A stretch of 64,000 bases of DNA, from positions 45,537-109,536 of the IMG/VR virus record IMGVR_UViG_3300045988_177049; one strand, 5' to 3'. This DNA is from a virus. Every line of letters begins with the position of its first letter. Position 1 is the stretch's first letter. Positions 11,099 to 38,669 of the stretch are shown piece by piece. Position numbers and translations under genes: made by a program. Under the pieces are notes generated by a model. The model had not been told where the DNA came from, ran no database searches, and saw nothing but the letters and a program-made list of their open reading frames with translations.

Positions 11099-11133
11099 GC
11101 GCATTTCTACTATTCATCGAAAGGATATTCACC

Positions 11134-11835: not shown

Positions 11836-11850
11836 CCGCACCTATCACAC

Positions 11851-11896
11851 AAAAACAATACCCCGAGCACGGTCATGTGCCCGGGGTATTGTTTTT
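11851..11896. terminator. bidirectional rho-independent terminator between convergent genes
   Basis: The 15-bp arms aaaaacaataccccg and cggggtattgttttt form a perfect inverted repeat. A-tracts and T-tracts lie on both sides, so it works on either strand. Confidence 0.6.
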
Positions 11897-11907
11897 GCCG
11901 TATGACT

Positions 11908-12246
11908 CTATTCGTCTGCATCCTCACCGTGATCATCCGATGCGGTGAGCGAACGATTCAGTGTCAGTGACGCCGAAAACTTCAAAACGTCATAATCAGG
12001 CACTCGGCCCGAGCCTGACTTCGTAAACTGCACAGCATGACCATGCTTATGCAACCGATAAAAGCGCCCGAAACCTGTCAGCATGACAGAGCCACCTGAT
12101 CGAACGGTTTCAATAATCTCGTCAATGAGAGCGCCGTACACAGCTCGTACCGTCGCTATATCGACGTGCGTCCGATGAGAGACGCGATGCAAGAGCTTCG
12201 TCTTTGTCAGGCGACCATCCTCTCGATTCCTATGTGTCGAAACCAT
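11908..12246 (-). CDS. HU/IHF-family nucleoid-associated DNA-binding protein
   Basis: LTKTKLLHRVSHRTHVDIATVRAVYGALIDEIIETVRSGGSVMLTGFGRFY aligns with the HU pattern of an N-terminal helix plus the conserved GFGxF arm. Confidence 0.65.
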   Translation of the reverse strand: MVSTHRNREDGRLTKTKLLHRVSHRTHVDIATVRAVYGALIDEIIETVRSGGSVMLTGFGRFYRLHKHGHAVQFTKSGSGRVPDYDVLKFSASLTLNRSLTASDDHGEDADE

Positions 12247-12298
12247 AACTTACCCTCGTTTCAATCCTTCCGTTAAAACTAACGATTACATTCATACA

Positions 12299-12313
12299 CC
12301 AGTATAACATACA
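12299..12313 (-). promoter_or_regulatory. 15-nt motif tCATACACCAGTATA, identical to 17042..17056; its minus-strand reading TATACTGGTGTATGA contains a -10-like TATACT
   Basis: An exact 15/15 repeat lies in two intergenic regions, each upstream of a minus-strand gene. Here it is about 53 nt before the HU start. Confidence 0.3.
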
Positions 12314-12369
12314 GTAATAGCCCCATAAAGCTGTAAGCTCCGTGGGGCTATTACAGTGCGCTTCGAGCC

Positions 12370-12705
12370 TTAGAACCCGTAGGTAGGCGAATCCTGTGCT
12401 GCATCCATCTCAGGATCGACGTTGTGAGACTGAGTGCGCGTAACAGTCGTTGTCGTCGTCTCCGTTTTCTTACTCATCGTGCCGCGCTGCTCTTCGATGT
12501 AAGCAGCTCGCATCTGTGAGGTGATACCTGTCGCGCCAATGTTGTACATGGCCGAGGCTGCACGATTGAGCACCCCAAGCGACGGAGCACTTTGTCGCTG
12601 ACGCTCAAGACGCCTCTGTCGCTCTTGGTTCCATGCATCACGATCTTCTGGCTTCACGCCAAAAAGATCACCCATCAACCCATCATCTGTTGGAAAACCG
12701 AGCAT
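12370..12705 (-). CDS. hypothetical protein (111 aa)
   Basis: RBS aagggag precedes the start. It sits in the operon between the 553-aa protein and the HU gene. Confidence 0.4.
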   Translation of the reverse strand: MLGFPTDDGLMGDLFGVKPEDRDAWNQERQRRLERQRQSAPSLGVLNRAASAMYNIGATGITSQMRAAYIEEQRGTMSKKTETTTTTVTRTQSHNVDPEMDAAQDSPTYGF

Positions 12706-12754
12706 TGCTCGCTCCCTTCTCTTACGTTTCTTTCACTAACCACGTGTATCAATC

Positions 12755-14416
12755 TTAACCGAGTGACGGCTCATCACCATCCTCTCGTTTAAATTGATCG
12801 GACTCACCCATCTCGAACCCATCGTCAACATCATTGAGTTCGAAATCAGTCTCAGCCGTGAATGCCGACGTCTCATGCTCGTTGTACTCCTGGTTGTCAC
12901 GAGCACGGTTGTACGCATGACGACGGCGTTCCTTATCGCTCCTCATCCGCTCCGTGTGTGCATCTGCATGAGCGTTATCATGCCCTGGCGACTCGCGTGG
13001 ATCAGAGTAGAACTCACCCCGCTGCCACCTGTTGTAGGTTTCCTCGGGGCTTGCGGCGAAATCCCGCATCTCCGACCTCCACTGCGAACCATACTGTTGT
13101 GCCCAGTGGCGTTCGATATCAGGATGCGCCTTCGCGACCAATTCCATTGCATGGACGAACGACGTCGAATAGACATCACGCTGGAGATCTCGACCAAAAC
13201 CGTCAAACTCCATGGCTTCAAGCCCACGCTGAGCGCGACGAATCTTTTCACCCATTTGACCTGGGATCGCTTGGGTGTCGAGAGCCTTGTCTCGAACAAA
13301 CCATGCCGAGCCATACGCCATCAACGTCTCATTAAGATCGACAAGGTTACCGTTCAAAGCAGCACGTTCCATCTCACGAGCCATAGTCACGCTGAGCGAC
13401 ATCTCATGCTGCATATCCGACTGCGGGGGTCGCACGGTAAAGGCTCCACTGATAACAGACTCGCCCGCACGTGTCGACCACTTGCCCGACCATGTACGAC
13501 CCAGCTCACCTGTTCGCGGATCAATCTGCTCGGTCATATCCATATCGACCTCGCCATGGGCCGTCTCGACAAAGCGATAGGCCCACTCAGGCTCATACGC
13601 CATACGCTGACCGACGAACATGCGACTAAGCGCACTCACGCGGTCTACATCCAACCCATCGAGCCGAACATCGTCCCAGAAACGCTCCATGAGGCGGTCA
13701 TAGTTCTCTTGCACCTCAGCTGGATCGGCCCCAGGAGCGCGCATTTGCTCAAACGCTGCTTCACTCAGGCCAATATGGGTCAGCGCAGCACTCATCTCGT
13801 TAAACGGAAGACGGTCGCCTCGCTCACTCGCCTCGATACGCTCCAAGCGACGCTTGAGCGACCACGGCAGTTCCCCGCCGTGCTTCTCCTTATGCTCTTG
13901 GATGTCGCGGTTCACCTGCTCACGCTGGTGTTTCCGCCTGGCATTAGCCATGTCTTCAATCGCCATACGAGCATCGCGCGTGAACGACCCTACCTGCTGA
14001 CGAAAGTTCGGCGACAATAGCCACATCGTCACGCCCATACCGAGTGACTCAGCAACAGCTGACATCGATACGCCGTCTTTGAGAGGCACCAAGGCGCTGA
14101 GCACCATCATGGACGCATACGCCTTGTGCTTACCTTTCAGATCGTTGGCGCGAGAGGCGAGATCGGCCTTGCGCCTCTCCCCTTTCAGATTCACTTGCTT
14201 CAACGCGTGTAAATACCCATCAGCGTGGCTACGCATCTCACGGCGAAGCTGTTGTCCCCAGTCCAGACGTGGAACACCTTGAACAGGGGTAGGCTCAGGC
14301 TCCGGCTCAATCACCGGATCAATGACGATCGTCTCCGTCACGTTCTCGTCAACTGCTGGCTTGCGAGGTTCTCCGCCATAGCGGGGTGCTGGAAGCTCAC
14401 GGGGTGGCCGACTCAT
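12755..14416 (-). CDS. hypothetical protein (553 aa) with an acidic C-terminus containing TDFEL and DDGFEM
   Basis: Long ORF translationally coupled to the upstream gene, with 14 nt between its start and the preceding TAG. The C-terminal acidic FEL-like motifs are shared with three upstream proteins. Confidence 0.5.
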   Translation of the reverse strand: MSRPPRELPAPRYGGEPRKPAVDENVTETIVIDPVIEPEPEPTPVQGVPRLDWGQQLRREMRSHADGYLHALKQVNLKGERRKADLASRANDLKGKHKAYASMMVLSALVPLKDGVSMSAVAESLGMGVTMWLLSPNFRQQVGSFTRDARMAIEDMANARRKHQREQVNRDIQEHKEKHGGELPWSLKRRLERIEASERGDRLPFNEMSAALTHIGLSEAAFEQMRAPGADPAEVQENYDRLMERFWDDVRLDGLDVDRVSALSRMFVGQRMAYEPEWAYRFVETAHGEVDMDMTEQIDPRTGELGRTWSGKWSTRAGESVISGAFTVRPPQSDMQHEMSLSVTMAREMERAALNGNLVDLNETLMAYGSAWFVRDKALDTQAIPGQMGEKIRRAQRGLEAMEFDGFGRDLQRDVYSTSFVHAMELVAKAHPDIERHWAQQYGSQWRSEMRDFAASPEETYNRWQRGEFYSDPRESPGHDNAHADAHTERMRSDKERRRHAYNRARDNQEYNEHETSAFTAETDFELNDVDDGFEMGESDQFKREDGDEPSLG

Positions 14417-14430
14417 CTCATTCTCCTTTT

Positions 14431-15594
14431 CTACAGCTCGAAACTCGCCTCGTCCCGACGCGCCTGCTGTGGAGCAGGAGCACCCATGCGACGAGTAGTC
14501 GAAGGAACACGCGGAGCAGAGCCAACCTTTATGCTGCTCCCTGGCAGTGCAGCCTGAATCGTTCCTGAAGTCTTCTGAGACTCAGGTGACGGAGCAAGAG
14601 GTCGGCCATCTACATCGCGACCCATTGACGCCATCCATTGCTTGGCAACGTCACCCACACGCACAGGCTGACCTGGGCCGCGCTGAGCACGAACGCTTGC
14701 CGCTGGCACTGAAGCCTGGGCAGGCTGAGAACTCACATTTTCATGCTGGCTCTGCTGCATCTGAGCCATGTTCTGACGATAATATGCGCGTGCATTATTC
14801 AGATCATGGAGCTGCGCATAATCTTGCACCATCGTGTCTTTGCCATAAGGCCGAACATAGTCATGTTCAATCTTACTGATCTCCGCCATGGCTTCATCAT
14901 CGATGAGGATCCCGCTCCAGGCAGCTTCCATAGCAGCGCCATAGAGCTTGTCGCCCTGATCGTTTACGCACGGCTCTAACCATCCCGACCGCGTATAGTC
15001 GGCTTCATAGTACTGAATCTTTTCGCCAGTACGGATAGCTCCATCACGAAGCAAAGCATTAACATGTTCATCCCTCTGTGGCTCGTTCTTATTGATCACA
15101 GTCCTGACCTTATCGGCCAATGATCCTGTCCATTCGTGGGGATCAAGACCGTAGTACTGCTTAATTTCAGCCTCTGTAGGCTGAGGGAATCGCATATCGA
15201 GCCTGAGATCAGCGAGCTTTGCATCATCGACCTGATGAACCGCATAATACGTACGACCAAGAGACTCGGCACCAACAGGAAGGACATACTGATCATCGGC
15301 ATCTTGAATAGCGATCATGGTTGGATCATCAATGATGACACCACCCCATGTCGCCTGGGAGATCGCATCGCGCAACTCGTTATCCACACGACCTTCATAC
15401 TCGTCAAGCTCCATTTCCCGCTCAAAGGCTTTCACGCCATCTCGCAACAGAGCATTCGCATATACGTCTCGATCCGGCATGTCTTTACCGACAATCGCTG
15501 CCATAGTGCCATCGAGCGTGCTGGACCACTCGTATGGTTCAAGACCATAACGCTGCTTGATCTCATCGTTCGTGAGATCTCGATTCATCAACAT
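14431..15594 (-). CDS. internally repeated protein, paralog of 15776..16987, C-terminus ...RRDEASFEL
   Basis: Two ~120-aa internal repeats, EIKQRYGLEPYEW...NALLRDG and EIKQYYGLDPHEWTGSL...NALLRDG. RBS aaggag precedes the start. The C-terminal ~40 aa, LPGSSIKVGSAPRVPST...FEL, is shared with the paralog and with the RNAP-like protein. Confidence 0.55.
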   Translation of the reverse strand: MLMNRDLTNDEIKQRYGLEPYEWSSTLDGTMAAIVGKDMPDRDVYANALLRDGVKAFEREMELDEYEGRVDNELRDAISQATWGGVIIDDPTMIAIQDADDQYVLPVGAESLGRTYYAVHQVDDAKLADLRLDMRFPQPTEAEIKQYYGLDPHEWTGSLADKVRTVINKNEPQRDEHVNALLRDGAIRTGEKIQYYEADYTRSGWLEPCVNDQGDKLYGAAMEAAWSGILIDDEAMAEISKIEHDYVRPYGKDTMVQDYAQLHDLNNARAYYRQNMAQMQQSQHENVSSQPAQASVPAASVRAQRGPGQPVRVGDVAKQWMASMGRDVDGRPLAPSPESQKTSGTIQAALPGSSIKVGSAPRVPSTTRRMGAPAPQQARRDEASFEL

Positions 15595-15775
15595 AGTTGT
15601 CTCCTTTTCGGAAAATAGTACATGTCATCCACCTACTATTGTACCGTATAGACGGACTAATAACGAGACGAATCCCCTGAAAACTCACACAAAACGAGCA
15701 TAAAGAAGCAGGCCATGCTCAGCCCTTGATACAAGAGCATGAGCATGACCCGCTTGCGTGAGTCGCTACAGGACC

Positions 15776-16987
15776 TTACAGTTCAAAACCGCCATCGGCT
15801 TCATACGAATCCGACCTCTGTGGCGCTAACGTGTGAGACACAGACGTTGACCGTACACGAGGTGCCTGACGACCAACAGTGATACTGCTACCAGGAAGCA
15901 CTGCCGCAATAGACCCCTGACGGGAACCTTGAGATGGGGTGGACGAAGATACAGGTTGACCATCAGTGTCACGCCCCATTGAGCGCGTCCATTGCTCCAA
16001 AGCATTAGCGAGCCGAACCTGCTCTTTACCATGAGCACTTCCACCTGTGATTACCGAAAAATCAGCAATTTCCTGAGCCGCTTGTCTCGATAACCCAGGC
16101 TTCTTCTCAGCATGAGACGAAACAAGCGTTGGTGCAGTCTCACGATAATACTTTCGTGCATCATTAAGTTCACGCAACTCGTCATATTGGCGCGTCAACA
16201 ATTCAGGAGCATAGGGAGTCACGTAGTTATGCTCCACCCTCTTGATAGCGTTCATCGTTTCAGCATTGATCAAAATACCATTCTCTACGGCGTCCTTGAT
16301 TGAATCACGCAGATCATAACCATAGACACAAGCATCCGCTCCCATATCATTATATGTTGCGTTCTCGGCCTCAAGCTTCTCCATACCAATCTCGAAAACA
16401 GCCACCTGATCACGCAAGAAACAGTTGACCTGATGTTCCTTATTCGGTGCGTCCTTATTGATAATCGTCCTCACATCGACTGATGTACCCGTCCATTCAT
16501 CAGGTTCAAGACCATAAATCGTCTCGATATACCAATCTGAGGGCCTTTGGTACTGCTCACGCAAAGACTGACGGTAATAAATCTGCAAGGGCTTATTGTA
16601 ATAAACCTCTAAACAAGAACTGAGTAGCGATTCCCCATCACTATGAACCACGTATTCATTATCCACATCATTGATGAACAAATAAGTTTCATCGTTGATA
16701 GAAACACCATTTTCGACAACGCGAGACACAGCATCCCGGAATTCAACGTCATCAGTGAATTCTTCGCCTGGTTCCAACGGAGTGTGCATACTTCGCTTAA
16801 AAAAGTCTGCACTGTCATACAGCAACGCATTGACCTGATCTTCTCGTGCGAGGTCATTCTTATTGATAATCGCTATCACTCGATCAGAAAGCGAACCAGC
16901 CCACTCATGAGCCTCAAGACCATAACGACTCTTGACCTCATCCTGTGGAACTGTTGCCATCCACTCTGACATAACTGACACAGACAT
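15776..16987 (-). CDS. internally repeated protein, paralog of 14431..15594, C-terminus ...EADGGFEL
   Basis: It carries the same YGLExxEWxGS...INKN...VNALL repeat module twice. Start chosen at ATG 16987 after RBS gagagga; the ORF-track start is a TTG. Confidence 0.55.
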   Translation of the reverse strand: MSVSVMSEWMATVPQDEVKSRYGLEAHEWAGSLSDRVIAIINKNDLAREDQVNALLYDSADFFKRSMHTPLEPGEEFTDDVEFRDAVSRVVENGVSINDETYLFINDVDNEYVVHSDGESLLSSCLEVYYNKPLQIYYRQSLREQYQRPSDWYIETIYGLEPDEWTGTSVDVRTIINKDAPNKEHQVNCFLRDQVAVFEIGMEKLEAENATYNDMGADACVYGYDLRDSIKDAVENGILINAETMNAIKRVEHNYVTPYAPELLTRQYDELRELNDARKYYRETAPTLVSSHAEKKPGLSRQAAQEIADFSVITGGSAHGKEQVRLANALEQWTRSMGRDTDGQPVSSSTPSQGSRQGSIAAVLPGSSITVGRQAPRVRSTSVSHTLAPQRSDSYEADGGFEL

Positions 16988-17041
16988 GATACATATTTCC
17001 TCTCTCAAAGCGGGTTTTCAACTCATACACCAGTATATCGT

Positions 17042-17056
17042 ACTATCTCTGCCATA
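17042..17056 (-). promoter_or_regulatory. second copy of the 15-nt motif tCATACACCAGTATA, ~34 nt upstream of the gene starting at 16987
   Basis: Exact repeat of 12299..12313. A hairpin (ggaagcgggttg ... caacccgcttcc) lies just upstream at ~17085..17125, between the RNAP-like gene and this motif. Confidence 0.3.
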
Positions 17057-17131
17057 TTGAGATACACCGGCTCATAAAGAGGAAGCGGGTTGCTCCAATC
17101 ATGAAACAACCCGCTTCCCACGACTGATGAC

Positions 17132-20100
17132 TCACAGCTCGAAGCCATCGTCCTCACTCTCGACAGCAACAGGCGCTGGCACCCGGTACTGAGCTGTCGT
17201 ACTTCTGCTCACATGTGCCGTGCCCGTCTTCGAGCGAACAGGAACAGCCCATGACGTCGACTTGCGTCGTCCGATGGTTTCCTCTACCTCAACGCGAGCC
17301 ACAGTGTCGTCCATCGCGATGACAGGAGCCTCGACTTGCGTCTCCACATCAGCCTGGAGCACCTCTCGCACGCGAGCAGGAGCAAAGCTCTCGTTCCACT
17401 TTCCTTCGAACAAACCGGCTCGCTCATGAGCCAACGTCTGCATCGTCGTGAAATCCCCACCGTACGCCAGGCGATCCATCGGTGAGGCCAACTTTTCGAT
17501 GACCTTCTCATCTTCCAAGTTGAGCATGATGCCGTTGCTATCACTGAGAGCCGTGGCAACCTTCTCGATGTTCTCAGCGTTCACGGTAACGCCCAAACCG
17601 TCGTCACCATAGAACCGAGAGAACGCCTCAACCCACTGCTCCTTCGTCGCTTGAACCGGCTTGTGATCAGCATCCAGAACAGTGTTCCACACGCCATCGT
17701 TTCCCTGAGCGATCATCTGTCCGCGCCACAAACTTCGAGCAGGCCCCATGAGCAGCTCATAACGATGACGTGCATCTACCGGATCATGCTTGGCCTGCAA
17801 AATGCTCTGGGTCACCGGGTAGGTCAACTCCAAAACAGCTTTCAGTTCCTCGTTACGCAGCGCTCGAACGCCGCGCTGAGAGAAGGTTCCAGCAACCCCT
17901 GTACCAAACGATTTCACAGCCGTTGCGTACATGGTACCCTTCTGATCATCGCGCGTGACCTGAGTGGTCGTCAGATCCACATGTGTCTCAGGGTCATATC
18001 CGATGTACTTGGCGTAATCAAGCATCTTCTTGGGCGAACCCTTTGCTCCAGTCTCGATACATGCCTTCTCAACAGAAGCCATGTGCTCGTGAACCGACCC
18101 AAAGGAAAGCACAGCTTCACCATACTGATGACGCAGTGCATCGTGATACATCCGTGATGCAGCAGCGCTCACCTCACGGCTCGTCTCCAAGAACCGCTCA
18201 CGACTAGACTCACCTTCGACGAAATCGTAGTATGCGTTGTTTGCCATCTGGTGAACCTCAGCCATATCTTCCGCATAAAGCGAGTCATAGTGCTGAGACA
18301 CCTTCACGTCCAGCGCATCATGCATCGCCAGAGGGTAGCAACCCTCGTCATCCATGCCTTGACCCAAATCAAGGAGATTCGCCTCAACACTCAGCCTCTC
18401 CATGGCTTGCTCGTGAGCAGCCCCGTGACCCAGGTTGACGACTGCCACCGAGTCACCATCAAAGTCGCCATCGAAACACTTGACCATGTTCGGATTCACG
18501 CTCACACCCGTGAGACGCTCGTCAATGCTCACTCGCATGTAACGAACGCCCGCATCACGGAGCACGGGATCACGCCAGATCAAAGCGTAGTCACCATCAC
18601 GTAAGCGCAGTTTTTTCGCCAGCTCTGGACCAACACCAACTTGATCAATATCAAGCCTGGGGTCCCCTGTCCACACAGCGGTTGCCGAGCGTGGCAAACG
18701 AGAAGCCATCAAGCCTTCCTTGACGACGTTATGTTTACCCGTAAAACGGCGGCGCATGATGTCCTGGGCAATACCGTCGTAAGCCGTCTGTGCGCGGTGC
18801 ATAGCCTCAGCCATCGTTTGACGAGCATCGGCCAAGTCCTTACCCGTCAGCTCACCCGAGGCAGCGCGGTCAGCCGCGTGCTTGTAACGCAGCGCCCACT
18901 CACGGATCGTCAAATAGCGATACGTGTAGTCATGGACCGTTGACGACCCATCATCCAGGTCTTGACCCGAGCGCAAGTGCGAACTCAGCACCGGCACACG
19001 CCACGTGGTATCCGTTGCGTGTAGGGTGCGCTCCCCCGTTGGCATCGTCAATGGGAATGGAATCTCCATATCACCACCAGCGTCACCAATGAGCGCAGCA
19101 AAATCACTCCGAACCTTGCGCACGTCAAACGACCCGCGTTCGGTCACAGGAACCTCACCCATCTCGATGAGACGGCGCGCACCACCAACAGCAAGATCGT
19201 CATGGCCCTCACGCAGCGTCCCATCGGGTTCGATGTCAAGACCGCACACCAGAGCCATCTCACGAAGCTGAGCGAGAGCTTGCAGATTACCACCGTAGAT
19301 CTGCTCCAGCACCTTGTCGCATCCCTGAGACTGCAACGCCCAAGCAAGCTGAGACGAGGCTTTACGTCCCTGACCAGCACGAATAGCAGCGTCATCGTAT
19401 GCAGCAGTCTTTGCATCAACCGTCATATGGGTACCAATGAAGGACACCTGACCGATACCGTTTTCAACAACCTCGCCGTTTGGCAGGTACAACGGAGCGG
19501 TACTCTGCATCGCTTCACGAGCGCTACCACCGTTGAAACGAGACACCGCGCTAAAGGGTGCCATCACGACGTCCAGATCCGGGTTTTGCCTAAACAGATC
19601 CATCATGTCAGTCGATCCATACAGATCTTCGATCTCCGAAGACGTCAATGAGGCATCACGGTCAACAATGAGTGAAATGACACCCTTGTTGCCGTGCATG
19701 TCGGAAATCTTGTCGCCGACAATGAGATCACGCATCTCGCCATCGGTTCCACGAACGCGATATGTACGCGCGAAATCAGCCGAAACAACGATGGAGTCTT
19801 CCATCGTCCATCCACCAGCCGTCATAAACGCCGTGCCCACAGGCTTCGTCACAGACGAGGCATTCATGAGATTCGATGTTGTCATCTGTTGACGATCGAA
19901 AGGATCATAGCTCATGAACTCAGCTTGTTTCGTCAGCATGAGCGGAGCACGATCACCCTTGTCTGAGGGAACAATCGACCCATCGACGTTCACCTGAGCA
20001 CCAGAAACCAGATAACGAGTCACGCCTTGGTTGACACCGCTCGATGTCATGATCGGATCAAAGTAGCCATCGGCTTCCTCACTGAGCAACGACATATTAC

Positions 20101-22585
20101 GACCGCCCGTGAGCACCCACGGATCCATCGTCGTGTCGTTGGCGGGATCGCCGCTAAAACCCTGTTCCCGTGCGCGAGATGCACGGAAATCCGCATCAAT
20201 GGTTGATCCATCACGCAGTGCATTCGGATAGCGCACGCGGCGCGCTTCGGTGGCAAGAATTGCATCGAGAATCTCTCGATCCATACCCTCTTCAAGGGCA
20301 CGCTCATAGTGATCTGCTCGATGGCGCGTATCAGTCAGCCTACGATACACACCGTTAAGGGAGGCAGGCTCACCGACGCGAGACCGGCCTGTGAGCACGT
20401 CAGCTTGAACCCGATAGCGAATCGCATCACTCATCTGCTGTTCGTAACCGATCAGCCGAGTGCGCTCTTCGAGAGACTTCTTTTCTCCGGGTTTTTGACT
20501 GACGACGCGCGCCTCAAAGCCTGGCACGATCATGAGATCGTTACCGGAGTTGAAACGAGTGATGATCTCTCCATTCTCACCGCGAGCGAAGATCTGTCCG
20601 ATCGTTCCGCTCACAGGCTCTTCTCGACCTGTTTGGGAACGCATGATTGAGCCGGTCCACTCCACGACACCGTTTGCATCGACGCGGATCGATCCAGGAG
20701 TAACCGCGCACGATTCAAGCGTGTCTGACACGACTTGAAGCATCGATGTGGTGAACTCATCGTCCACAACGTCCATTGACAACGCCGTGGACTCGTCGAA
20801 AGTGATCAATCGATCCCTAAATGCGTTGGAATAGAAAGATTCTCCAACGATCTTTTCCTTCGGCAAACGCGCGGTACGCATTGCAGCCACAAGATCATCG
20901 TTGTTACGCCACTGACCGTATTCACTGGTCATGTAACGAGCAGTACGCACGGGATCAAAGACAAACTCATCCGACTCAATCGGTGCATCCACACCGATTT
21001 GAGTATCGAGTAGATCACGCAGGTGCGCACGAACGCGCTCTTCTGGACTTCCCGTGTAAGCCACAGAACCGGCCAACATGTCGTGAACACCAGACAGATC
21101 GCTGTCTTGGTCCATCTCATCGAGCAACCCTGTTGCTTCGGCGTACTCAGACCTAGTTGCATCAGGCTTGAGCAATGTGGTCTCTGCTCCGCGCAGAACG
21201 TCCCAATACGCGCGCCCAACGGCTGCAAGATCAGGATCGCCAGACAACACAGGAACATACGTCCCCTCGCGTGCAGCGTCTTCATGCTCGCTGAGCTGAC
21301 GGATCAAACCGTCAACATCGAGCTGCTGCTCCACATTGATGCGAGCACTACGAACAGCATCGGTGATAAACGTCGATGCCTGGGTTCGACCTTCGGGCGT
21401 ATCAACGAAGAACCGAGACGAGGCAGAACGCTCCTTCATCTGACGACGGATGACCACCTGCTCACCGTTTGCTCCCGGCATGTCCTTATACGCACTCGTG
21501 AGCGTGTCTGTGGACAAATACGACTCTTGAAGCGTCTTATTCTTGCTCTGACGCTGACCAACGTGGCCGACAAGACCTTTACCGTCCTTGCGCTCCACGG
21601 GGCGTCCCAAGGCGACGCGCACAAGGTCGCACACCTCATCAACAGTGGGTGTGTACGCCACCTGCTTGTTATCTCGACGAGCAGTCGTGGAGAAGTACAG
21701 CGTTGCACCGTTGTCATAGACACGACCCACCCACTGCTCTTTGTCTCGGGTATCGGTCAGACGCACCGTCATATTCGTTCCCGTGAGTCGAGCACGAATC
21801 TGACCGGGACGCAAGTCCTTTTCAATCGTGTAGGGAATACCTTCTTCGGCCAACATATCGAGCACAGCTCGGGAGCGAGCAAGTGCGTCGGTACTCATGA
21901 ACTGACGGGCGTTATAGCGTCCCGTCTCAGGGTTACGTGCACCATCAAGTACCCACTGACGAACATCGTTGTACTCAGCCGTCGTCATGCGACCCATGAG
22001 TTCAGTCAGGCCCGAGATATCATCGAGGCTGAGTGCCCGGCCTGCTTCTTTCGCATCGCCGTCTTCGTTCAGACGATAGAGCTTGAGTTCCGAGGATGTG
22101 ACCTTTTCCAGACTACTCGGCTTGCCATCGGCAAATGCAGCAATGTCATCATCGAGAATATACAAAATCGATGAACCAGCTTGCTTGACGCTTCGGCGGG
22201 TTCCCCACCGAGGATCATAAGGAGAGATCGGCAAACGAGGTCCAGCAGCTCCTGTAGATCCGCTCAGACCAATCGTCGCCGTAAAGTCTTTGTACAACGC
22301 CTTGTAGCCCTTACTTGATGTATCGGCAGGCTGGAACAAGGCTTTGTATCCTGGGACGTTCTCACTCATGACGCTTTGAATAGCGTCGAGTGCTTCGGGG
22401 ACGCCTAAGTCCCCATCGTTAAACGAACGTCCATTTTCATTAAGCTTGGCTTCCATGAGATCTCGCAAGTGCCGACCCTGTGAAACCAGGATCGGAGAAC
22501 CAATCAACTCACTCGTTCGATTGATCGTACGGGCGATCATGTACTCATACATGTACCGACGCAAACCAGCATTACGCGTTTGCAT
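17132..22585 (-). CDS. single-polypeptide two-barrel RNA polymerase-like protein (1817 aa) carrying both the beta-subunit and beta-prime-subunit catalytic motifs of multisubunit RNAPs
   Basis: LIVGDKISDMHGNKGVISLIV matches the beta DPBB signature GDKxAGRHGNKGVVS. About 350 aa downstream, VKCFDGDFDGDSVAVVNL matches the beta-prime Mg-binding NADFDGD signature. RBS aaggag precedes the start. The C-terminal tail ...VAVESEDDGFEL resembles those of the two downstream paralogs. Confidence 0.7.
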   Translation of the reverse strand: MQTRNAGLRRYMYEYMIARTINRTSELIGSPILVSQGRHLRDLMEAKLNENGRSFNDGDLGVPEALDAIQSVMSENVPGYKALFQPADTSSKGYKALYKDFTATIGLSGSTGAAGPRLPISPYDPRWGTRRSVKQAGSSILYILDDDIAAFADGKPSSLEKVTSSELKLYRLNEDGDAKEAGRALSLDDISGLTELMGRMTTAEYNDVRQWVLDGARNPETGRYNARQFMSTDALARSRAVLDMLAEEGIPYTIEKDLRPGQIRARLTGTNMTVRLTDTRDKEQWVGRVYDNGATLYFSTTARRDNKQVAYTPTVDEVCDLVRVALGRPVERKDGKGLVGHVGQRQSKNKTLQESYLSTDTLTSAYKDMPGANGEQVVIRRQMKERSASSRFFVDTPEGRTQASTFITDAVRSARINVEQQLDVDGLIRQLSEHEDAAREGTYVPVLSGDPDLAAVGRAYWDVLRGAETTLLKPDATRSEYAEATGLLDEMDQDSDLSGVHDMLAGSVAYTGSPEERVRAHLRDLLDTQIGVDAPIESDEFVFDPVRTARYMTSEYGQWRNNDDLVAAMRTARLPKEKIVGESFYSNAFRDRLITFDESTALSMDVVDDEFTTSMLQVVSDTLESCAVTPGSIRVDANGVVEWTGSIMRSQTGREEPVSGTIGQIFARGENGEIITRFNSGNDLMIVPGFEARVVSQKPGEKKSLEERTRLIGYEQQMSDAIRYRVQADVLTGRSRVGEPASLNGVYRRLTDTRHRADHYERALEEGMDREILDAILATEARRVRYPNALRDGSTIDADFRASRAREQGFSGDPANDTTMDPWVLTGGRNMSLLSEEADGYFDPIMTSSGVNQGVTRYLVSGAQVNVDGSIVPSDKGDRAPLMLTKQAEFMSYDPFDRQQMTTSNLMNASSVTKPVGTAFMTAGGWTMEDSIVVSADFARTYRVRGTDGEMRDLIVGDKISDMHGNKGVISLIVDRDASLTSSEIEDLYGSTDMMDLFRQNPDLDVVMAPFSAVSRFNGGSAREAMQSTAPLYLPNGEVVENGIGQVSFIGTHMTVDAKTAAYDDAAIRAGQGRKASSQLAWALQSQGCDKVLEQIYGGNLQALAQLREMALVCGLDIEPDGTLREGHDDLAVGGARRLIEMGEVPVTERGSFDVRKVRSDFAALIGDAGGDMEIPFPLTMPTGERTLHATDTTWRVPVLSSHLRSGQDLDDGSSTVHDYTYRYLTIREWALRYKHAADRAASGELTGKDLADARQTMAEAMHRAQTAYDGIAQDIMRRRFTGKHNVVKEGLMASRLPRSATAVWTGDPRLDIDQVGVGPELAKKLRLRDGDYALIWRDPVLRDAGVRYMRVSIDERLTGVSVNPNMVKCFDGDFDGDSVAVVNLGHGAAHEQAMERLSVEANLLDLGQGMDDEGCYPLAMHDALDVKVSQHYDSLYAEDMAEVHQMANNAYYDFVEGESSRERFLETSREVSAAASRMYHDALRHQYGEAVLSFGSVHEHMASVEKACIETGAKGSPKKMLDYAKYIGYDPETHVDLTTTQVTRDDQKGTMYATAVKSFGTGVAGTFSQRGVRALRNEELKAVLELTYPVTQSILQAKHDPVDARHRYELLMGPARSLWRGQMIAQGNDGVWNTVLDADHKPVQATKEQWVEAFSRFYGDDGLGVTVNAENIEKVATALSDSNGIMLNLEDEKVIEKLASPMDRLAYGGDFTTMQTLAHERAGLFEGKWNESFAPARVREVLQADVETQVEAPVIAMDDTVARVEVEETIGRRKSTSWAVPVRSKTGTAHVSRSTTAQYRVPAPVAVESEDDGFEL

Positions 22586-22821
22586 AACATTCTCCTTTTC
22601 AGGTTCGGCCCAGTCGGACCGATCGGGTGATTACCCTTACATATTACCTGAAAAACCCACGCTTTTCAACGGAAACACTGTCGAAACGCTTTTGTATCGA
22701 GTACGATAAATACGTAGATGTCATATCGCAAACCCCGGTGTCACGGACAAACATTTTCCGTGTGTAACATCCGACAAGCCATATGACCATCTCTCAACAC
22801 ACAACAGAAAGGACACTCACC

Positions 22822-24213: not shown

Positions 24214-24306
24214 TACCTCACACAGGGCGCGAGTAGCGGCGGTTCGTATGACACATGTTGTGCGAGCCGCCGCTTCCTTTTGCACCACACCGACAAAGGA
24301 GTAACC

Positions 24307-24828: not shown

Positions 24829-25036
24829 GCGCATCACACGCATCATTGAGGGAAAGAACGTAGTCCTTTTCAACGACCATGAAATCAAAAAACTCATCCA
24901 AAAACGCTGTAACACGTTTTTCTAAAGTTTTTGACTCGGATACATCTCCAATCAATTCTTCCAATCTTTCAGCAGTCGTAATGAGATTATCTCGCTTATC
25001 CAAAAAATCCGAAACGACCGTTTCCAAATTTGCCAT
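24785..25036 (-). CDS. small acidic hypothetical protein (~83 aa), AT-rich
   Basis: RBS aaaggaaagg precedes ATG 25036 (MANLETVV). It overlaps the HNH gene tail on the opposite strand, so the call is low confidence. Confidence 0.3.
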   Translation of the reverse strand: MANLETVVSDFLDKRDNLITTAERLEELIGDVSESKTLEKRVTAFLDEFFDFMVVEKDYVLSLNDACDALMDALGVPPLEPEA

Positions 25037-27587: not shown

Positions 27588-30500
27588 TCACTCGTTCTCT
27601 CGGCGCTCATGGATACGAGCCATAGCTCGATCAAAAGCACCGTTACCGAGATCTTCCCACGATTCACAGCTGTTCAAGAACTTATAGAACGCGTCGTGAA
27701 CCTGCCACGAGCCAAGCTCAGCAGCATTCATGATCGACTCATCGTCACCATACACACCTTGGGTGGCATCAGACGATGCATCCTGGATCGCGCGCAGCTC
27801 AGAGCTTGACAAGCCCTGGCTGATGTACACCCGACCTTCAAGCGAGCACAGTGACCCGTTCGCGTCCACTCTAAAGAACCGGGCGTCTCCTGCAAGTTCA
27901 CGCTTGGTCTCACGGTACGCAGCGATGATCTCATCATCAAGACTATGGATCACACTTCCGTTGTCACCGATAAAATCAGCACGGCTGATCTGACCTTCGG
28001 CATACCGCTTCTTCTTCCGATCATCCATAATCTTCTGCTGCACGGCCATTTCTTGCTGAACGTCCTCATTGATCACGTCATCTTGACTAAAGACATCATA
28101 ACCCGCTCCCACGAAAGCACGATACGCGTCCTCACTCATCATGTCGTATTCTTCGGACTCATCACTTTGACCTTGGCGTTCTGCCTCAATGGATGCAATG
28201 AGATCCATGACCTCAGCCGAGTACACGTCTGGGTCCAAAATCGAGATGCCGTAATCATCCAGGTTATAAGCATCTTGGTACAGATTCATTGCCTCAGCAG
28301 CGTTTGCAGCCTGTTCAATACGCTTGTCCAGCATCTTGACAAAGTCAGGCTGGTTCAAGCGCACATCGAACTCAAGTGCAGACGAAAGGGTTGGAATCGT
28401 CTGGAGCGAATACGTGTGTCCTGGATGCTGAATCGTGTCTTTGAACAAACGCCACGACATCGGCAGGATCTCTGCATTGCGGTTCCAGATCGGTGAGATA
28501 CCAGCGGAGAAGATGATTGAATTACGCTCCGGCAAAAATGCCAAGTCATTGTACCCAATCACAGACTCTTCCTTCGCACTGATCGTGTACGAGACCTTGC
28601 CCTCAACATTCAAACCTTCGATGAGACGCTCGGTATCCTGAGTCACCGTCTTCGAGTCTCGCACCGCGCGGTGGCGCGTACCTGACATCTTCGCCAATGT
28701 CTCAATCATCGTATCGTCCGTCGATTTCAGAAACACAATATTGGCAACGTTTCCTTGGATGATCTTATCTACCGAGTCGCCATAGACGTCTCTAGCCTGC
28801 TGCAACGTTTGAAGAATCAACGTAAATTGCTGCTCCTGGCCCAAACCAATCGACAACATGGTTTCGAACCCGGCGATACCGTGGCCCTCAGACTGCAAGT
28901 TACCCAACTCGTCAAGCATGAAGCGCGTCTTGTACAACGGCTTCTGGCTCGACTTGGTCATGTAAGACTTATCAAAGTTCAAGTCCACCAATTGCTTCAC
29001 GAGGATCAGCACGAGTTTCGCGTACTTCATCAAGTGCGGTGGCGTCACCAGGAACACAGCCTTGGGTTGTTCCGAGTACCGCACCGACGACAAGATAATG
29101 GCAGGCACGCTCTCTCGCACCGTCTGAGGCTTCCCAGCCTTATCGAGAAGACGAGTCGTGGGGTAGTTCAGATGACCTGGAACAAGTTTTCCATCCGGCC
29201 CCTTCACCATCTCCACGAGAACACCATTACGGATGATCTTGCTTCCCGTCACAGGGTCTTTGACGAACTTACGACCATTCAGGGACAACTGGTACCCCTT
29301 CGTGAACTGAAAATAGAACGTCTTCAAGAGCACGCCGGTATGCGGATTAAACAAGCGCAGTCGCAAGTATGCGACATCGTGAGGGAACTTCCCATCGAAG
29401 TAGTAACGCGCCCAACCTTCTCGCACAACTGTGTCTTCGTGCTCAAAGTCTTTCCCGAGGTTGTGTGTCAACTCGGGATCATCAAAGGCATCCCACTTCG
29501 CCTGAGCACCAATGAGACCGTCTCGCTTAGTGAAGTTTTGTGCGAAACGGACACCGAAACGACGAGGGAACGACAACCCGCCCAAGTCAGTGTTCTGGGA
29601 GGGCGTACCAGAAGTCAGTGTCGAGATCGTCGGATCAGTAAAGAAGCTCATTGCGGTGATCGCAATACCGTAGACAGACGCAAGCATCTTCTCAGCTCCC
29701 GCCATTGCACGAAGCGCATTGTTGGCGTTGGCAATGAGCGTGCGCATCGTCGACTGAGGTAGAGCCTCGGTCGCGTTAAAGAACAAGGTGAGCAGGTCCA
29801 GCTCAGGCTTGTCTTCCCACAAGAACTCAATACGCTCGGCTTGTGCCTGGTCGTGATTGATCGCTTCCTGACGTTCGTCCTCGTCCTGAATCTGGTCGTA
29901 ATACCCACCCTTGAGACGCTCGTTCATCTGAGTCATGGGCGACTTGCGCTTCTTCGAGGTGAGCTGCACAAAAAGCTGGTAGCAGTTATAGAGCGTGACT
30001 TTACCCCACATGGCATCGAGCTTTTGTTCCAAAACCTTTTGATCCATGCCATGTCGCATCGCATACTGACGCAACTGGTGCTCTTCTTCCAGGTAGTAGT
30101 CGATCAAGCCGTATGCTGCACGCTTGAACGCGTTGTTTGCAGCGTTCGGCCACACCGGGTCTTCTGCACCATCGACTGGGAAGAACACGTCTGCGATGTT
30201 TTCAACGTAGAGAGCACACTTGGTCTGGTCACCTTCGCGTGCTGCCTCAGCAGCCATCCCAAGCGGATTGTAAATGTCCGTTTTCATGGCATTGATGAGG
30301 TTAAACTGCACAACCTGGAACCCGCGCATGGTGGCACGGACGTAATTTTTCACCAAAAGTTCGCCCTTGGGGTCATTGATGACCATGTTGTCCGGGCGCT
30401 TTTGGCGCATCCAGATATCGAGCATCGGTTCAATGTAGGTCTGACCTTTACCAGCACGAGTCATAGCAAGGATCATGGTGTTGGCAGGGGCTGTATCAAC

Positions 30501-31628
30501 GTAATACACACCAGCCGGGCGCTGAGGCTCATACGTAGGCAGCTCCCACTCCCCATTCACCAGATCGGCGAGCGTGGCAAAACCTTTGAGCTTATCTCGG
30601 CTCGCGTTCCCGGGGTTGTAAGGAACAGTGCTGGGGTCGAGACGCCGACGCAGTTTATCGTTGTCAGGCAGACCCGAGGCGTCCCACAAAGCCGTTCCAA
30701 AGGCTTCATCGAACATCGGAACCATGTCAGTGATCGGGGTTCCGTGTTCATCGGTGAGAACCTCGCCCTTGAACAAAGTCACGTCGTCATCTTCATCAAG
30801 AATGTCTGTCTCAGCACGCTTGGCAAACGCCACCGGCTTAATACCCTTATTCGCCACCATCGAGTGTGAAATGAGCGTTGTCGCACTGACCCCTGTGTGT
30901 GCTCCAACATCGGGAACAACGTCGAAACGCTCGCGCACCTCTTCGGGCAAGGCCACGTGCTGATCGTTCTTGTACTGGTTAATATCCGTGGTGTCACGCA
31001 TGAGGTTCTGAGCCTTAAGATTGCGCATCAAGACCAGACGCAGCGCCCCCCATGCTGCTCCACCAGCGAAGGCGGAGACGAAAAACTTGATCCAACCGAG
31101 TGAGAAGATCCACCCCAGAGCACTCCCAGGTTGATCAGCCATCTGAGCATCCCGCTCGGCCTTTTCTGCTGCCACAGCGTCCTTATGCCACTGTGGTTCA
31201 GGAACGTCCTTGGCTGACTCGTAACACGTCTCATCAGATGGGTCAGGCGACCCATCCTCTAGAGCCGGAGAATAACACACCTCGCTGATCACAGAACGGT
31301 GCAAAGCTTTGGTAAGATCCCTGTTCTCAACCGAATAGCTCGGTACAGACGAGTGCCACAGCGAGTCTTTCACCGCTGCAATGCCCATCGAACCAAACGA
31401 AATGATCACCCAGACGGAAATGAAAACAAGTATGCCGACCGCTGCTGAGGCGATCTCACGAGAGCGAGGAGAGAGCTTTGCTTCAATCTCACTACGCTCA
31501 AGCTGCTGATCCCCGTGAACATCCTGGTACGCCAAGGAGTCCAGCTCGTCTTGCTGACCGAGCTGTGCCCACGCTTGGCTCCCCTTTTCACGAGGGGCCT
31601 GCCCTCTGGCTTTTCGACGCCAACCCAT
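27588..31628 (-). CDS. type IV secretion coupling protein (VirD4/TraG family), unusually long at 1346 aa
   Basis: Two N-terminal TM helices. The Walker A-like AMTRAGKGQT matches VirD4 PTRSGKG, and VINDPKGEL matches the T4CP DPKGE motif. About 700 aa of extra C-terminal sequence follows. Confidence 0.7.
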   Translation of the reverse strand: MGWRRKARGQAPREKGSQAWAQLGQQDELDSLAYQDVHGDQQLERSEIEAKLSPRSREIASAAVGILVFISVWVIISFGSMGIAAVKDSLWHSSVPSYSVENRDLTKALHRSVISEVCYSPALEDGSPDPSDETCYESAKDVPEPQWHKDAVAAEKAERDAQMADQPGSALGWIFSLGWIKFFVSAFAGGAAWGALRLVLMRNLKAQNLMRDTTDINQYKNDQHVALPEEVRERFDVVPDVGAHTGVSATTLISHSMVANKGIKPVAFAKRAETDILDEDDDVTLFKGEVLTDEHGTPITDMVPMFDEAFGTALWDASGLPDNDKLRRRLDPSTVPYNPGNASRDKLKGFATLADLVNGEWELPTYEPQRPAGVYYVDTAPANTMILAMTRAGKGQTYIEPMLDIWMRQKRPDNMVINDPKGELLVKNYVRATMRGFQVVQFNLINAMKTDIYNPLGMAAEAAREGDQTKCALYVENIADVFFPVDGAEDPVWPNAANNAFKRAAYGLIDYYLEEEHQLRQYAMRHGMDQKVLEQKLDAMWGKVTLYNCYQLFVQLTSKKRKSPMTQMNERLKGGYYDQIQDEDERQEAINHDQAQAERIEFLWEDKPELDLLTLFFNATEALPQSTMRTLIANANNALRAMAGAEKMLASVYGIAITAMSFFTDPTISTLTSGTPSQNTDLGGLSFPRRFGVRFAQNFTKRDGLIGAQAKWDAFDDPELTHNLGKDFEHEDTVVREGWARYYFDGKFPHDVAYLRLRLFNPHTGVLLKTFYFQFTKGYQLSLNGRKFVKDPVTGSKIIRNGVLVEMVKGPDGKLVPGHLNYPTTRLLDKAGKPQTVRESVPAIILSSVRYSEQPKAVFLVTPPHLMKYAKLVLILVKQLVDLNFDKSYMTKSSQKPLYKTRFMLDELGNLQSEGHGIAGFETMLSIGLGQEQQFTLILQTLQQARDVYGDSVDKIIQGNVANIVFLKSTDDTMIETLAKMSGTRHRAVRDSKTVTQDTERLIEGLNVEGKVSYTISAKEESVIGYNDLAFLPERNSIIFSAGISPIWNRNAEILPMSWRLFKDTIQHPGHTYSLQTIPTLSSALEFDVRLNQPDFVKMLDKRIEQAANAAEAMNLYQDAYNLDDYGISILDPDVYSAEVMDLIASIEAERQGQSDESEEYDMMSEDAYRAFVGAGYDVFSQDDVINEDVQQEMAVQQKIMDDRKKKRYAEGQISRADFIGDNGSVIHSLDDEIIAAYRETKRELAGDARFFRVDANGSLCSLEGRVYISQGLSSSELRAIQDASSDATQGVYGDDESIMNAAELGSWQVHDAFYKFLNSCESWEDLGNGAFDRAMARIHERRENE

Positions 31629-38117: not shown

Positions 38118-38669
38118 TCAGAACTCCGGTTCGTCGTTCTCGATCTCAGCAACCTCTTCAACCTGCGCCTCGGCGCTAACCTCGGCTTCTGCGTCCTTCT
38201 GAGCAGCCTTGCGAGCTTCATTAGCTTCCTTAGCTGCCTTCGAAGCTGCACGCAGCTCATCGAAGATCTTATCGTCGATCGCCAACTCCGAAGGCTCAAG
38301 AGTCTTCGTGTTGATGACAAGACCAGTCTGCTTACCAGATGCAGGCATCACGTCTGCCTTCACCGCGTAAACGCGAGGTCCCGGATGACCGTCACGCTCA
38401 GGCATCTGAACGAAGTTATCGCCAGCCGCAGCAACAATAGCATCTCGCTGAGACACACTGTAACCGGCCTGGTGATCATACACCGTTCGACCATCCAATT
38501 CACGCTTCTTCGACACCAGGTGAGGAACTTGCTGGGGTGCAACACCCTCAACAGGACGCACCTGTGCATCCAGGAAGAAACGATCGCCAGCCTTTGAGTG
38601 TGCGTTGGGGTATTCGACAACCACCAGCTCGACACCACTCATTGAACCCTTACCACGTAGAATAGCCAT
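38118..38669 (-). CDS. hypothetical protein with a Lys/Ala/Glu-rich acidic tail ending ...ENDEPEF
   Basis: ORF of 183 aa directly downstream of the relaxase gene on the same strand. The C-terminal EPEF is shared with ORF 41205..42308. Confidence 0.45.
   Translation of the reverse strand: MAILRGKGSMSGVELVVVEYPNAHSKAGDRFFLDAQVRPVEGVAPQQVPHLVSKKRELDGRTVYDHQAGYSVSQRDAIVAAAGDNFVQMPERDGHPGPRVYAVKADVMPASGKQTGLVINTKTLEPSELAIDDKIFDELRAASKAAKEANEARKAAQKDAEAEVSAEAQVEEVAEIENDEPEF

Follow-up and report, generated by a model that had tools for sequence, protein, structure and literature searches.

A conserved acidic-aromatic C-terminal tail on a two-barrel RNA polymerase and its neighbours in actinobacterial conjugative elements: a candidate docking or export signal

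The 64,000-nucleotide stretch analysed here (the window; positions 45,537 to 109,536 of IMG/VR record IMGVR_UViG_3300045988_177049) is, judged by its gene content, a conjugative element with a type IV secretion system (T4SS), actinobacterial and Actinomyces-like, and the closest genome matches of the element are contigs of uncultured Actinomyces metagenome-assembled genomes (96% and 86% protein identity). Six co-directional genes on its minus strand encode an RNA polymerase (RNAP)-like protein, two paralogs (parA and parB), proteins of two further families (p553 and p111) and an HU/IHF-like protein. Our central observation is that, within one family of T4SS conjugative elements, a defined subset of the proteins is marked at the C-terminus by a conserved short linear motif, which the machinery proteins lack. 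Most likely, this tail lets one common partner recognise its carriers, and that partner is probably the export machinery of the element. The observation itself is robust, and reaches further than was visible to a first-pass annotation made from the letters of the window; its interpretation we consider plausible, with support in part.

Within the window, the translations agree with that annotation on the ends of three open reading frames (ORFs): the RNAP-like protein ends ...ESEDDGFEL, and the two paralogs end ...EADGGFEL and ...RRDEASFEL. In a six-frame scan (ORFs of at least 50 amino acids; end patterns [FWY]E[LMIVF] or F[ED][LMIV]), FEL ends are confined to these 3 of 559 ORFs, which are mutually adjacent. 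The 553-residue protein does contain the TDFEL (residues 523-527) and DDGFEM (531-536) attributed to its end, but the true terminus lies further on, as DDGFEMG (531-537) is followed by a 16-residue extension to DEPSLG. In the orthologue alignment this extension is lineage-specific, and DDGFEMG aligns with the ancestral C-terminus ...QDVDFELG, with F534 and G537 conserved. An additional carrier, p111 (...SPTYGF), had been overlooked. The FEL tails are acidic, with no lysine or arginine in their last six residues. Their codons differ (TTC GAG CTG versus TTT GAA CTG), as do their stop codons (TGA, TAA and TAG), and the DNA downstream is unrelated; selection must therefore have acted at the peptide level, and a DNA repeat or gene-conversion artefact was rejected on the same differences.

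Other elements of the first description had to be narrowed. Some 40 residues preceding the tail had been thought common to the RNAP and both paralogs. They are common to the paralogs, because parA and parB are homologous over their whole length, but the RNAP does not share them: by local alignment with 2000 shuffles, its pre-tail region did not rise above shuffled sequence against parA or parB (p=0.62 and 0.017), nor did that of the sister Actinomyces element L001 (p=0.94 and 0.97), and a 40-residue module joining the RNAP to the paralogs was rejected for this reason. Across families, as judged by alignment, the shared part is the last six to eight residues only. The carriers had also been called otherwise unrelated, which is true of the RNAP, paralog and p553 families (and of p111) but not of parA and parB, which are homologous at 35-38% identity. 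Last, the genes had been treated as an operon, which was an assumption. Strong hairpins follow the RNAP, parA, p111 and HU genes in the minus-strand transcripts (17082-17120, 15705-15755, 12310-12362 and 11845-11905; -33.9, -40.3, -30.8 and -41.3 kcal/mol), and a single operon is as such plausible rather than demonstrated. A canonical U-tract accompanies only the hairpin after the HU gene; the other three might act as attenuators or as sites of RNA stabilisation or processing, dividing the supposed operon into segments.

The first-pass annotation had made its proposal depend on conservation of the tails in homologous operons, and this conservation was upheld across 73 loci, 96 plus 146 RNAP homologues, 120 paralog homologues (the matches listed) and about 30 p553 orthologues. 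As read from these sequences, the motif is a run of at least two acidic residues, an aromatic or large hydrophobic residue, E/Q/G, then L/M/F/P with zero to three trailing residues, at the extreme C-terminus of a region predicted to be disordered, and it falls within the last 3-7 residues of its carriers. The strict form is found in 52 of 63 unique RNAP tails from the 73 loci (83%), in 14 of 29 p553 orthologues, in 5 of 6 BLAST-defined p111 orthologues and in 4 of 4 of the parA/parB paralogs, compared with 15 of 6141 control ORFs of at least 100 amino acids from the same loci (0.24%) and 5 of 1416 control ORFs with high GC at third codon positions. Among close RNAP homologues the tail is near-universal (e.g. 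DDGFEL, DDYQL, DSFQL, DDDYGMGY, GGPELG, DGFEYGL), and of 146 further RNAP representatives (50%-identity clusters) 33 match strictly and 80 loosely, the loose pattern having a baseline of 4.4-5.8% in control ORFs. None of the unique tails of the machinery carries the strict motif (coupling protein, 0/50; AAA+ protein, 0/52; membrane protein, 0/53), and HU orthologues do so in 2 of 52 cases.

The conservation is concentrated at the very end of the proteins. All 120 paralog homologues among the matches listed keep the FEL end while their N-terminal helical domains diverge to 39% identity, and F385, E386 and L387 of parB are invariant alignment columns. Orthologues of p553 end in ...QDVDFELG, EDYQPA, EHEYQA or EGFDMGG, and those of p111, with its positional equivalents, in DPDFEL, EPDLEL, DEGFEF, DPGFEF, SDYSPGF or DAPYEY. 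In AlphaFold2 (AF2) models, parB folds as a two-repeat all-alpha domain (residues 1-285) at a predicted local confidence (pLDDT) of about 88, and residues 334-387 fall to about 30; residues 515-553 of p553 score below 50 and are predicted to be disordered. On these models, the tails presumably sit in disordered segments. The likely start of parA is the ATG at 16987, and the protein of a near-identical element (L002) aligns from residue 8.

Each family has its own flavours across genera: DDYGMG[YNG] or DDYQL on the RNAP, [DE][YF]QP or DVDFELG on p553 and [DE]P[DG][FL]E[LF] on p111. The same flavour also turns up on different families in different elements. GPELG is found on the RNAP in Arthrobacter-type elements and on a p553-like 778-residue protein in Gordonia, and the p553 of Microbacteriaceae carries DFELG, the Actinomyces RNAP DGFEL; judged from these termini, the label is portable. 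Lineage-specific genes inserted after the RNAP gene are tailed as well, namely the Actinomyces paralogs and a 269-residue protein of Lumbricidophila (ESNFDF), and in the sister element L001 three proteins share an identical VDDGFEL end. In three Nocardiopsis loci (L049, L057 and L059) the aromatic residue, Y or F in relatives, is missing from the tails of the RNAP (DEGMGL), p553 (EDPQPV) and p111 (LGPEME) alike, and this joint loss may be a concerted change with a common receptor.

Individual loci whose genes were called or annotated, which serve as clean controls, give the same picture of a selective label. On an Arthrobacter-type contig the RNAP (GGPELG), a 586-residue protein (EGFDMGG) and a 105-residue protein (SDYSPGF) are tailed and the other genes are not, and on a CGP3-like contig of Corynebacterium type (L076) the tail is confined to the RNAP (DGGFEL) and proteins of 77 (FDDMDF), 719 (DPQYGY) and 75 residues (NDGFSFG). 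In the latter (3897-19219) the genes follow a coupling-protein remnant in this order, with the RNAP beside a DNA methylase and a restriction enzyme, and the neighbourhood looks like a decayed conjugative element rather than a prophage module; if it is the CGP3 region of C. glutamicum, part of that 'prophage' may be conjugative in origin. Plasmid pGKT2 of Gordonia sp. KTR9 (L074) encodes four co-directional transfer-region proteins that end in G-P-x-[LM]: a 398-residue protein (SPGPSL), a glycine-rich 323-residue protein (SGPQLG), a LysM protein of 191 residues (AGPEMSA), which lacks an N-terminal signal peptide, and the 778-residue protein that resembles p553 (STGPELGA). Looser tails of like kind are present on its relaxase (TSPGM), its RNAP (SEGLGA), a p183-like 200-residue protein (DAVPNF) and a 103-residue protein (DNGYEF). 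By inspection, the other listed pGKT2 genes have no such tail, except for the EPPF ends of two: the true SSB (the protein that binds single-stranded DNA), which ends NDEPPF, and a 104-residue hypothetical protein (34337-34651, minus strand) that ends GEEPPF, echoes the plasmid's own SSB tail 3 kb away and may be an SSB-tail mimic.

The carriers keep constant genomic company. The gene order (MobL relaxase), p183, AAA+ protein (about 590 residues), membrane protein, coupling protein, RNAP, p553, p111, HU is constant across genera, and the block from AAA+ to HU is syntenic from Actinomyces to Streptomyces, Arthrobacter, Kribbella and Gordonia; in most related elements the RNAP gene has that of its conserved partner, p553, downstream of it. 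In virtually every related locus (86 matches, 73 loci) a conserved Clp/Hsp100-type two-ring AAA+ protein is encoded two genes upstream of the RNAP, and its orthologues in other elements are of about 590 residues, free of inteins and in the same position. The membrane protein has 66 orthologues in related loci; the HU-like protein has 57 in the same position and an acidic end (DDHGEDADE) without the aromatic tail residue. The giant coupling protein is 1330-1750 residues long in related elements, where its gene lies directly upstream of that of the RNAP, and the match of the window protein to the VirD4-like CD1115 family of NCBIfam (E=8e-44) lies below the curated cutoff. The window differs from most relatives in that a 4.7-kb insertion (22783-27484) parts these two genes; it encodes a surface protein with an LAHTG sorting signal, an HNH protein and a DUF4379 treble-clef/restriction endonuclease-like protein, along with two small ORFs, and a second DUF4379 protein occurs near the RNAP of L076 (837-2657). 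Besides the LAHTG-anchored surface protein, the element encodes a topoisomerase III-like protein and a Phage_lysozyme2 cell-wall hydrolase.

The RNAP-like protein belongs, by its sequence, to the single-polypeptide two-barrel polymerases of the NCgl1702-like family, and RNA synthesis is predicted for it. It carries a beta-type double-psi beta-barrel signature, GDKISDMHGNKGVIS, at residues 957-971 (matching GDK....HGNKG[VI]), and a beta-prime-type metal-binding signature, CFDGDFDGDS; in an alignment of 16 sequences G957, D958, K959, S961, D962, H964, G965, N966, K967, G968, V969 and I970 of the former and D1372, D1374, D1376 and D1378 of the latter are invariant. Pfam concurs, with RNA_pol_Rpb2_6 matched at 27.6 bits (above the cutoff, 23.4) and Rpb1_2 at 28.0 bits (above 25.3). 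The homologues form 96 clusters at 90% identity and 565 at 50% identity, with hosts in Arthrobacter, Microbacterium, Plantibacter, Cryobacterium, Streptomyces, Kribbella, Nocardiopsis, Gordonia, Rhodococcus and Corynebacterium. The C. glutamicum-type homologue of L076 (39% identity), which has the length of NCgl1702 (2169 residues) and the methylase and restriction-enzyme neighbours noted above, ends in DGGFEL. Plasmids of Staphylococcus and Lactococcus carry members of the family at about 25% identity, and there the tail is seen on the RNAP only: the homologue of SAP020A (L077; 1807 residues) ends in DKGFELEM and that of pJM4A (L078; 2382 residues) in EVEIEMEV. SAP020A has an architecture like that of the element, with a large coupling protein near the RNAP, a topoisomerase III and Phage_lysozyme2/CHAP, and in pJM4A a lysozyme/CHAP hydrolase lies near the RNAP. 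No homologue was found in any of 50,697 phage records, and a phage origin or a virion-packaging signal was rejected on this ground. Published analyses of NCgl1702-like and YonO-like RNAPs, with which the window protein shares both double-psi beta-barrel signatures within one chain, cover the catalytic core and phyletic spread (Iyer & Aravind; PMC7824862, PMC2919709). In the published work on NCgl1702-like RNAPs we found nothing on a C-terminal tail or on its sharing with neighbours, and in the literature no description of a fixed linkage of the RNAP to a coupling protein and a Clp-type AAA+ protein, no proposal that an NCgl1702-like RNAP is transferred and nothing on an acidic-aromatic tail.

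How might the tail work? We consider it possible, if still somewhat short of probable, that it is a docking or export signal by which a coupling-protein/unfoldase machinery takes up its client proteins. The tails would dock these clients onto the giant VirD4-type coupling protein encoded upstream, and the adjacent two-ring AAA+ protein, a candidate second receptor, might help as an unfoldase. The clients would be the RNAP, p553, p111 and the Actinomyces-specific paralogs, in some elements joined by the relaxase and small accessory proteins; they would be brought to the transfer channel, from where they would probably leave together with the T-strand, and the RNAP would then work on the DNA arriving in the recipient. 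Several features of the data support a docking or export role: the machinery is untailed while the RNAP, p553, p111 and paralog families are enriched in tails, and the RNAP gene block is linked to the VirD4-type coupling protein and the Clp-like AAA+ protein. Further support comes from the restriction of FEL ends to three adjacent ORFs of the window, from the conservation of the motif against its low frequency in controls, from its portability between families, from the tails of the pGKT2 transfer region, from their predicted disorder and from the joint loss of the aromatic residue in Nocardiopsis. As summarised in the passage of PMC12857230 that draws on Trokter & Waksman 2018, T4SS substrates are recruited by coupling-protein complexes and must unfold to pass. 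Conjugative plasmids are known to co-transfer primases and to ship SSB and other proteins to recipients (PMC5512222, PMC8406263). The fullest version, in which a 200-kDa two-barrel RNAP and its partners leave with the transferred strand, the tail being an export tag read by the coupling protein and the AAA+ protein unfolding the cargo, so that the RNAP may transcribe or prime the incoming single-stranded DNA independently of the host RNAP, seems to us doubtful as it stands. The receptor, the export and the activity of the RNAP in the recipient are steps that we infer, the last of them purely so.

Several observations weigh against such a role. Most signals known from conjugative T4SSs are basic or lie internally, and are not acidic. 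The relaxase, as the one protein that must reach the coupling protein, would be expected to bear the label, and its tails are inconsistent: DDIELG in the window, which fits only the loose pattern, STAFEP in Streptomyces, TSPGM in Gordonia, and no motif in several others. Tails are retained in L076 though the coupling protein there is a 507-residue remnant, and in a distant low-GC element the coupling protein is present and the RNAP untailed. That each family keeps its own flavour (RNAP DDYGMGY, p553 EDYQPA, p111 DPDFEL) could mean different partners. Covariation of the last eight residues within elements is weak and carries no phylogenetic correction (RNAP with p553, p=0.02; p553 with p111, p=0.05; RNAP with p111, p=0.76), and we dropped it as a main argument for these reasons. 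Furthermore, a VirB4-type ATPase was not recognised in the window, where neither a hidden Markov model match nor a Walker A motif in the large ORFs was found; either the mating-channel ATPase has diverged strongly or its gene lies beyond the window. The first-pass proposal of a common docking or export signal is thus supported in part, by the conservation, by the coupling-protein and AAA+ context, by the untailed machinery and by the tails of the pGKT2 transfer region, but its two candidates, a T4SS signal and an SSB-tail-like epitope, are not discriminated, and the relaxase tails are inconsistent and the covariation weak.

The second of these candidates is the main rival to export: an intracellular epitope of the kind found at the SSB C-terminus (SSB-Ct) or in T7 gp2.5/gp4. 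Through it several nucleic-acid enzymes (RNAP, p553, p111 and the SSB-like p183) would bind to a single hub protein in the cytoplasm, or to the basic DNA-binding surfaces of one another, and build a nucleoprotein machine on the DNA of the element; export would play no part. We regard this as unlikely, though by a lesser degree than the explanations that follow it. The chemistry matches, with acidic residues followed by an aromatic one, a free C-terminus and a disordered linker. The interchangeable acidic tails of T7 gp2.5 and gp4, which end in Phe, bind T7 DNA polymerase, and the persistence of tails beside the truncated coupling protein of the CGP3-like locus would be expected. Family-specific flavours across genera would fit several related docking sites, and the DEPEF and DEEPEF ends of p183 and p367 in the window come near the DEPPF end of an actinobacterial SSB such as that of pGKT2. 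However, the aromatic residue of FEL-type tails stands at position -3 rather than last, without the Pro-Phe of SSB-Ct; the carriers lack an OB fold (no Pfam match; all-alpha or novel in AF2 models); the polymerase bears the tail rather than receiving it; and the LysM protein without a signal peptide and the glycine-rich 323-residue protein of pGKT2 are unlikely members of a DNA machine.

An improbable alternative is that the tail is a tag for the Clp/Hsp100-type AAA+ protein alone, akin to ssrA, which would serve in the unfolding, remodelling or controlled turnover of proteins that could be toxic, such as a foreign RNAP, not in export. The conserved position of this two-ring protein with its ClpB D2-small domain, and a second AAA+ copy at 1428-3269, would suit such a tag, and an acidic/aromatic/x/Leu-COOH end resembles degrons of the ssrA type (...ENYALAA). 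No ClpP-type protease or adaptor is seen in the cluster, however, and SAP020A keeps the RNAP tail with no AAA+ protein identified among the neighbours scanned. The constant flanking of the AAA+ protein by the membrane and coupling proteins suggests that it acts at the channel, which argues against a tag for it alone and partly merges this alternative with the export of clients.

Still less probable is an intramolecular tail that mimics DNA and folds back, autoinhibitory, onto the carrier's own nucleic-acid-binding surface, as in SSB, gp2.5 and HMGB1, having arisen convergently with no common partner. The core carriers all belong to an operon of DNA/RNA enzymes beside an HU-like protein, and their tails are acidic, disordered and family-specific in flavour, which is consistent with this idea. 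Charge mimicry, however, would not conserve aromatic-x-Leu, whose F, E and L do not vary in the paralog matches listed, nor would it homogenise the three L001 proteins to one end or place tails on LysM and glycine-rich proteins, and it leaves the simultaneous aromatic loss in three Nocardiopsis proteins unexplained. That the tails share no function, and reflect chance or compositional bias together with the common descent of the paralogs, is highly improbable: two of the three FEL ends are indeed not independent, parA and parB being paralogous, and 4-6% of control ORFs match the loose acidic/hydrophobic pattern, but over hundreds of sequences from three to four unrelated families the strict motif shows a more than 100-fold enrichment, the tail is conserved at about 25% identity into Firmicutes, and the synonymous codon differences bespeak selection on the peptide. 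These last three explanations are thus less likely than export or a hub. We also rejected a proteasomal HbYX/GQYL-type motif, as the aromatic residue lies at -3 rather than penultimate, and a YxxxD/E signal of type VII secretion, as ESX components are not present.

Set beside known systems, the tail is best filed with C-terminal docking and translocation peptides. The C-terminal signals of the T4SSs of Legionella (Dot/Icm) and of Agrobacterium and Bartonella (VirB/D4) are likewise short, unstructured, at the extreme C-terminus and borne by otherwise unrelated proteins. Here, the tails of parB and p553 are modelled in unstructured segments at the extreme C-terminus, and the label appears on putative substrates rather than on machinery, with a coupling protein present. 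In Legionella the glutamate-rich E-block is bound by DotM; no DotM, IcmSW or adaptor homologue is seen in the element. Linkage to a VirD4-type coupling protein is common to these systems and the element (PMC12857230). The E-block shares with our tails an acidic character, but it is a diffuse glutamate-rich patch, whereas the tails have a defined aromatic-x-Leu end. The VirB/D4 signals are rich in arginine and positively charged, unlike these acidic tails. Both the Dot/Icm and the VirB/D4 systems belong to pathogens that translocate effectors, whereas the elements considered here are Gram-positive and conjugative.

The likeness to SSB-Ct (DDDIPF in E. coli, DDEPPF in actinobacteria) lies in the acidic stretch, the hydrophobic or aromatic end, the free carboxylate, the disordered linker and the use of one epitope for many interactions, and the DEPEF ends of p183 and p367 come close to it. 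The FEL tails, in contrast, have their aromatic residue at -3, end in Leu and contain no Pro, and the RNAP, parA, parB, p553 and p111 have no SSB or OB match in Pfam; the AF2 models, of parB and p553, are helical. SSB is moreover one tailed protein with many binders, whereas here many different proteins are tailed. As such, the tail lacks both the arginine-rich character of VirB/D4 signals and the canonical features of SSB-Ct. In phage T7, the tails of gp2.5 and gp4 are interchangeable, end in Phe and dock on a common partner; these too are unrelated but functionally linked nucleic-acid proteins of one mobile genome with an acidic/aromatic tail. The T7 partner, however, is the polymerase and the setting phage replication, whereas here the polymerase itself is tailed and the context is conjugation. 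The shipping of an element's own nucleic-acid enzymes with its DNA is the concept embodied by the TraC primase of RP4, the Sog primase of ColIb and the SSB, PsiB and ParB proteins of the F plasmid (PMC5512222, PMC8406263), where transfer is established and not, as here, inferred. The injected virion RNAP of phage N4 would have its conjugative counterpart in an exported RNAP of this element; the N4 enzyme is T7-like and packaged in the capsid, whereas the present one is of the two-barrel type. We know of no two-barrel RNAP that is transferred by conjugation.

Little is known of how Gram-positive conjugation systems select their protein substrates, and to our knowledge actinobacterial T4SS elements have no defined C-terminal signal. 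With a tag as simple and conserved as this one, which marks the RNAP, its partners and some proteins of the relaxosome, substrate recognition and the part of Clp-type unfoldases in conjugation would become directly testable, and there would be an experimental handle on what a polymerase family that has long lacked an explanation does. Should the RNAP travel with the DNA, new hosts would receive a transcription or priming machinery of the element's own, with consequences for host range and for the ability to establish in spite of host defences. The tag might also serve the delivery of cargo proteins between actinobacteria.

Table 1. Positions in the window of the tailed proteins and of the principal neighbouring genes.
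Feature	Position	Strand	Remarks
RNAP-like protein	22585..17132	-	1817 aa (amino acids); tail ...VESEDDGFEL encoded at 17135-17164
Paralog A (parA)	17008..15776	-	410 aa from TTG; ends ...SYEADGGFEL, tail 15779-15802
Paralog B (parB)	15594..14431	-	387 aa; ends ...RRDEASFEL; predicted disordered C-terminal region, residues 286-387, 14434-14739
p553 family protein	14416..12755	-	TDFEL and DDGFEMG at 12806-12850; extension to DEPSLG at 12758-12805
p111 family protein	12705..12370	-	111 aa; end ...AAQDSPTYGF, a variant of the common tail
HU/IHF-like DNA-binding protein	12246..11908	-	Pfam Bac_DNA_binding, 9.7e-10; terminal gene of the conserved block
Giant VirD4/TraG-type coupling protein	27588..31628	-	1346 aa; Pfam T4SS-DNA_transf, TraG-D_C, TrwB_AAD_bind
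Conserved membrane protein	31776..34064	-	762 aa; between AAA+ and coupling protein; C-terminal transmembrane segment, hydrophobic residues 706-739
Clp/Hsp100-type two-ring AAA+ protein with intein	34217..37990	-	Pfam AAA_2, AAA, ClpB_D2-small, LAGLIDADG_3, Hint
p183 family protein	38118..38669	-	just downstream of relaxase; ends ...IENDEPEF
MobL relaxase	38805..41129	-	774 aa; Pfam MobL, 2.4e-63; ends ...DASDDIELG
367-residue acidic protein (p367)	41205..42308	-	upstream of relaxase; ends ...DIEDEEPEF

Some further features of the window and its relatives deserve record. The giant coupling proteins have a common C-terminal motif, SWE.LA.G.FDRAMA.EM (window, 27588-27660; L003-L073, about 9700-9830; L079, 4220-4356), which is still recognisable in the low-GC element (SWSAFANGKFEEAVSRKM) and in the 507-residue Corynebacterium-type remnant (HWRDLAQGHFDKEVARAF) and is a candidate interaction helix. 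The intein of the AAA+ protein has its LAGLIDADG_3 match at residues 850-913, with weak matches to Hint and Hom_end, and the second two-ring copy (1428-3269, plus strand; 613 residues) is free of inteins. Of the two proteins encoded beside the relaxase, p367 has no family match; p183 has none in Pfam or the PDB (phmmer gives spurious polyubiquitin hits, and a profile search of the PDB nothing), and its orthologues align at a D-x-P-x-F / ...AVG end that resembles the SSB C-terminal tail. On the minus strand, at 44456-53835, two ORFs of 1082 and 709 residues without a Walker A motif lie beside the lysozyme gene.

On the plus strand, a UvrD-like helicase seems to be split (4060-8282) into a 647-residue ORF with the UvrD N-terminal domain and a 416-residue ORF with UvrD_C, between which lies a 233-residue LAGLIDADG endonuclease ORF (6344-7045); the arrangement may be a decayed intein or the insertion of a homing endonuclease. 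A PemK/MazF-like toxin ORF (8298-9095, plus strand) ends in KKTKKKKKK encoded by a poly-A tract and overlaps the next ORF (8965-9537), which may reflect either a sequencing artefact or a frameshift at a slippery tract. Genes for tRNA-Leu(CAA) and tRNA-Pro(TGG) at the window's right edge (63517-64000, plus strand) lie beside the last genes of the element and likely mark its integration site or boundary.

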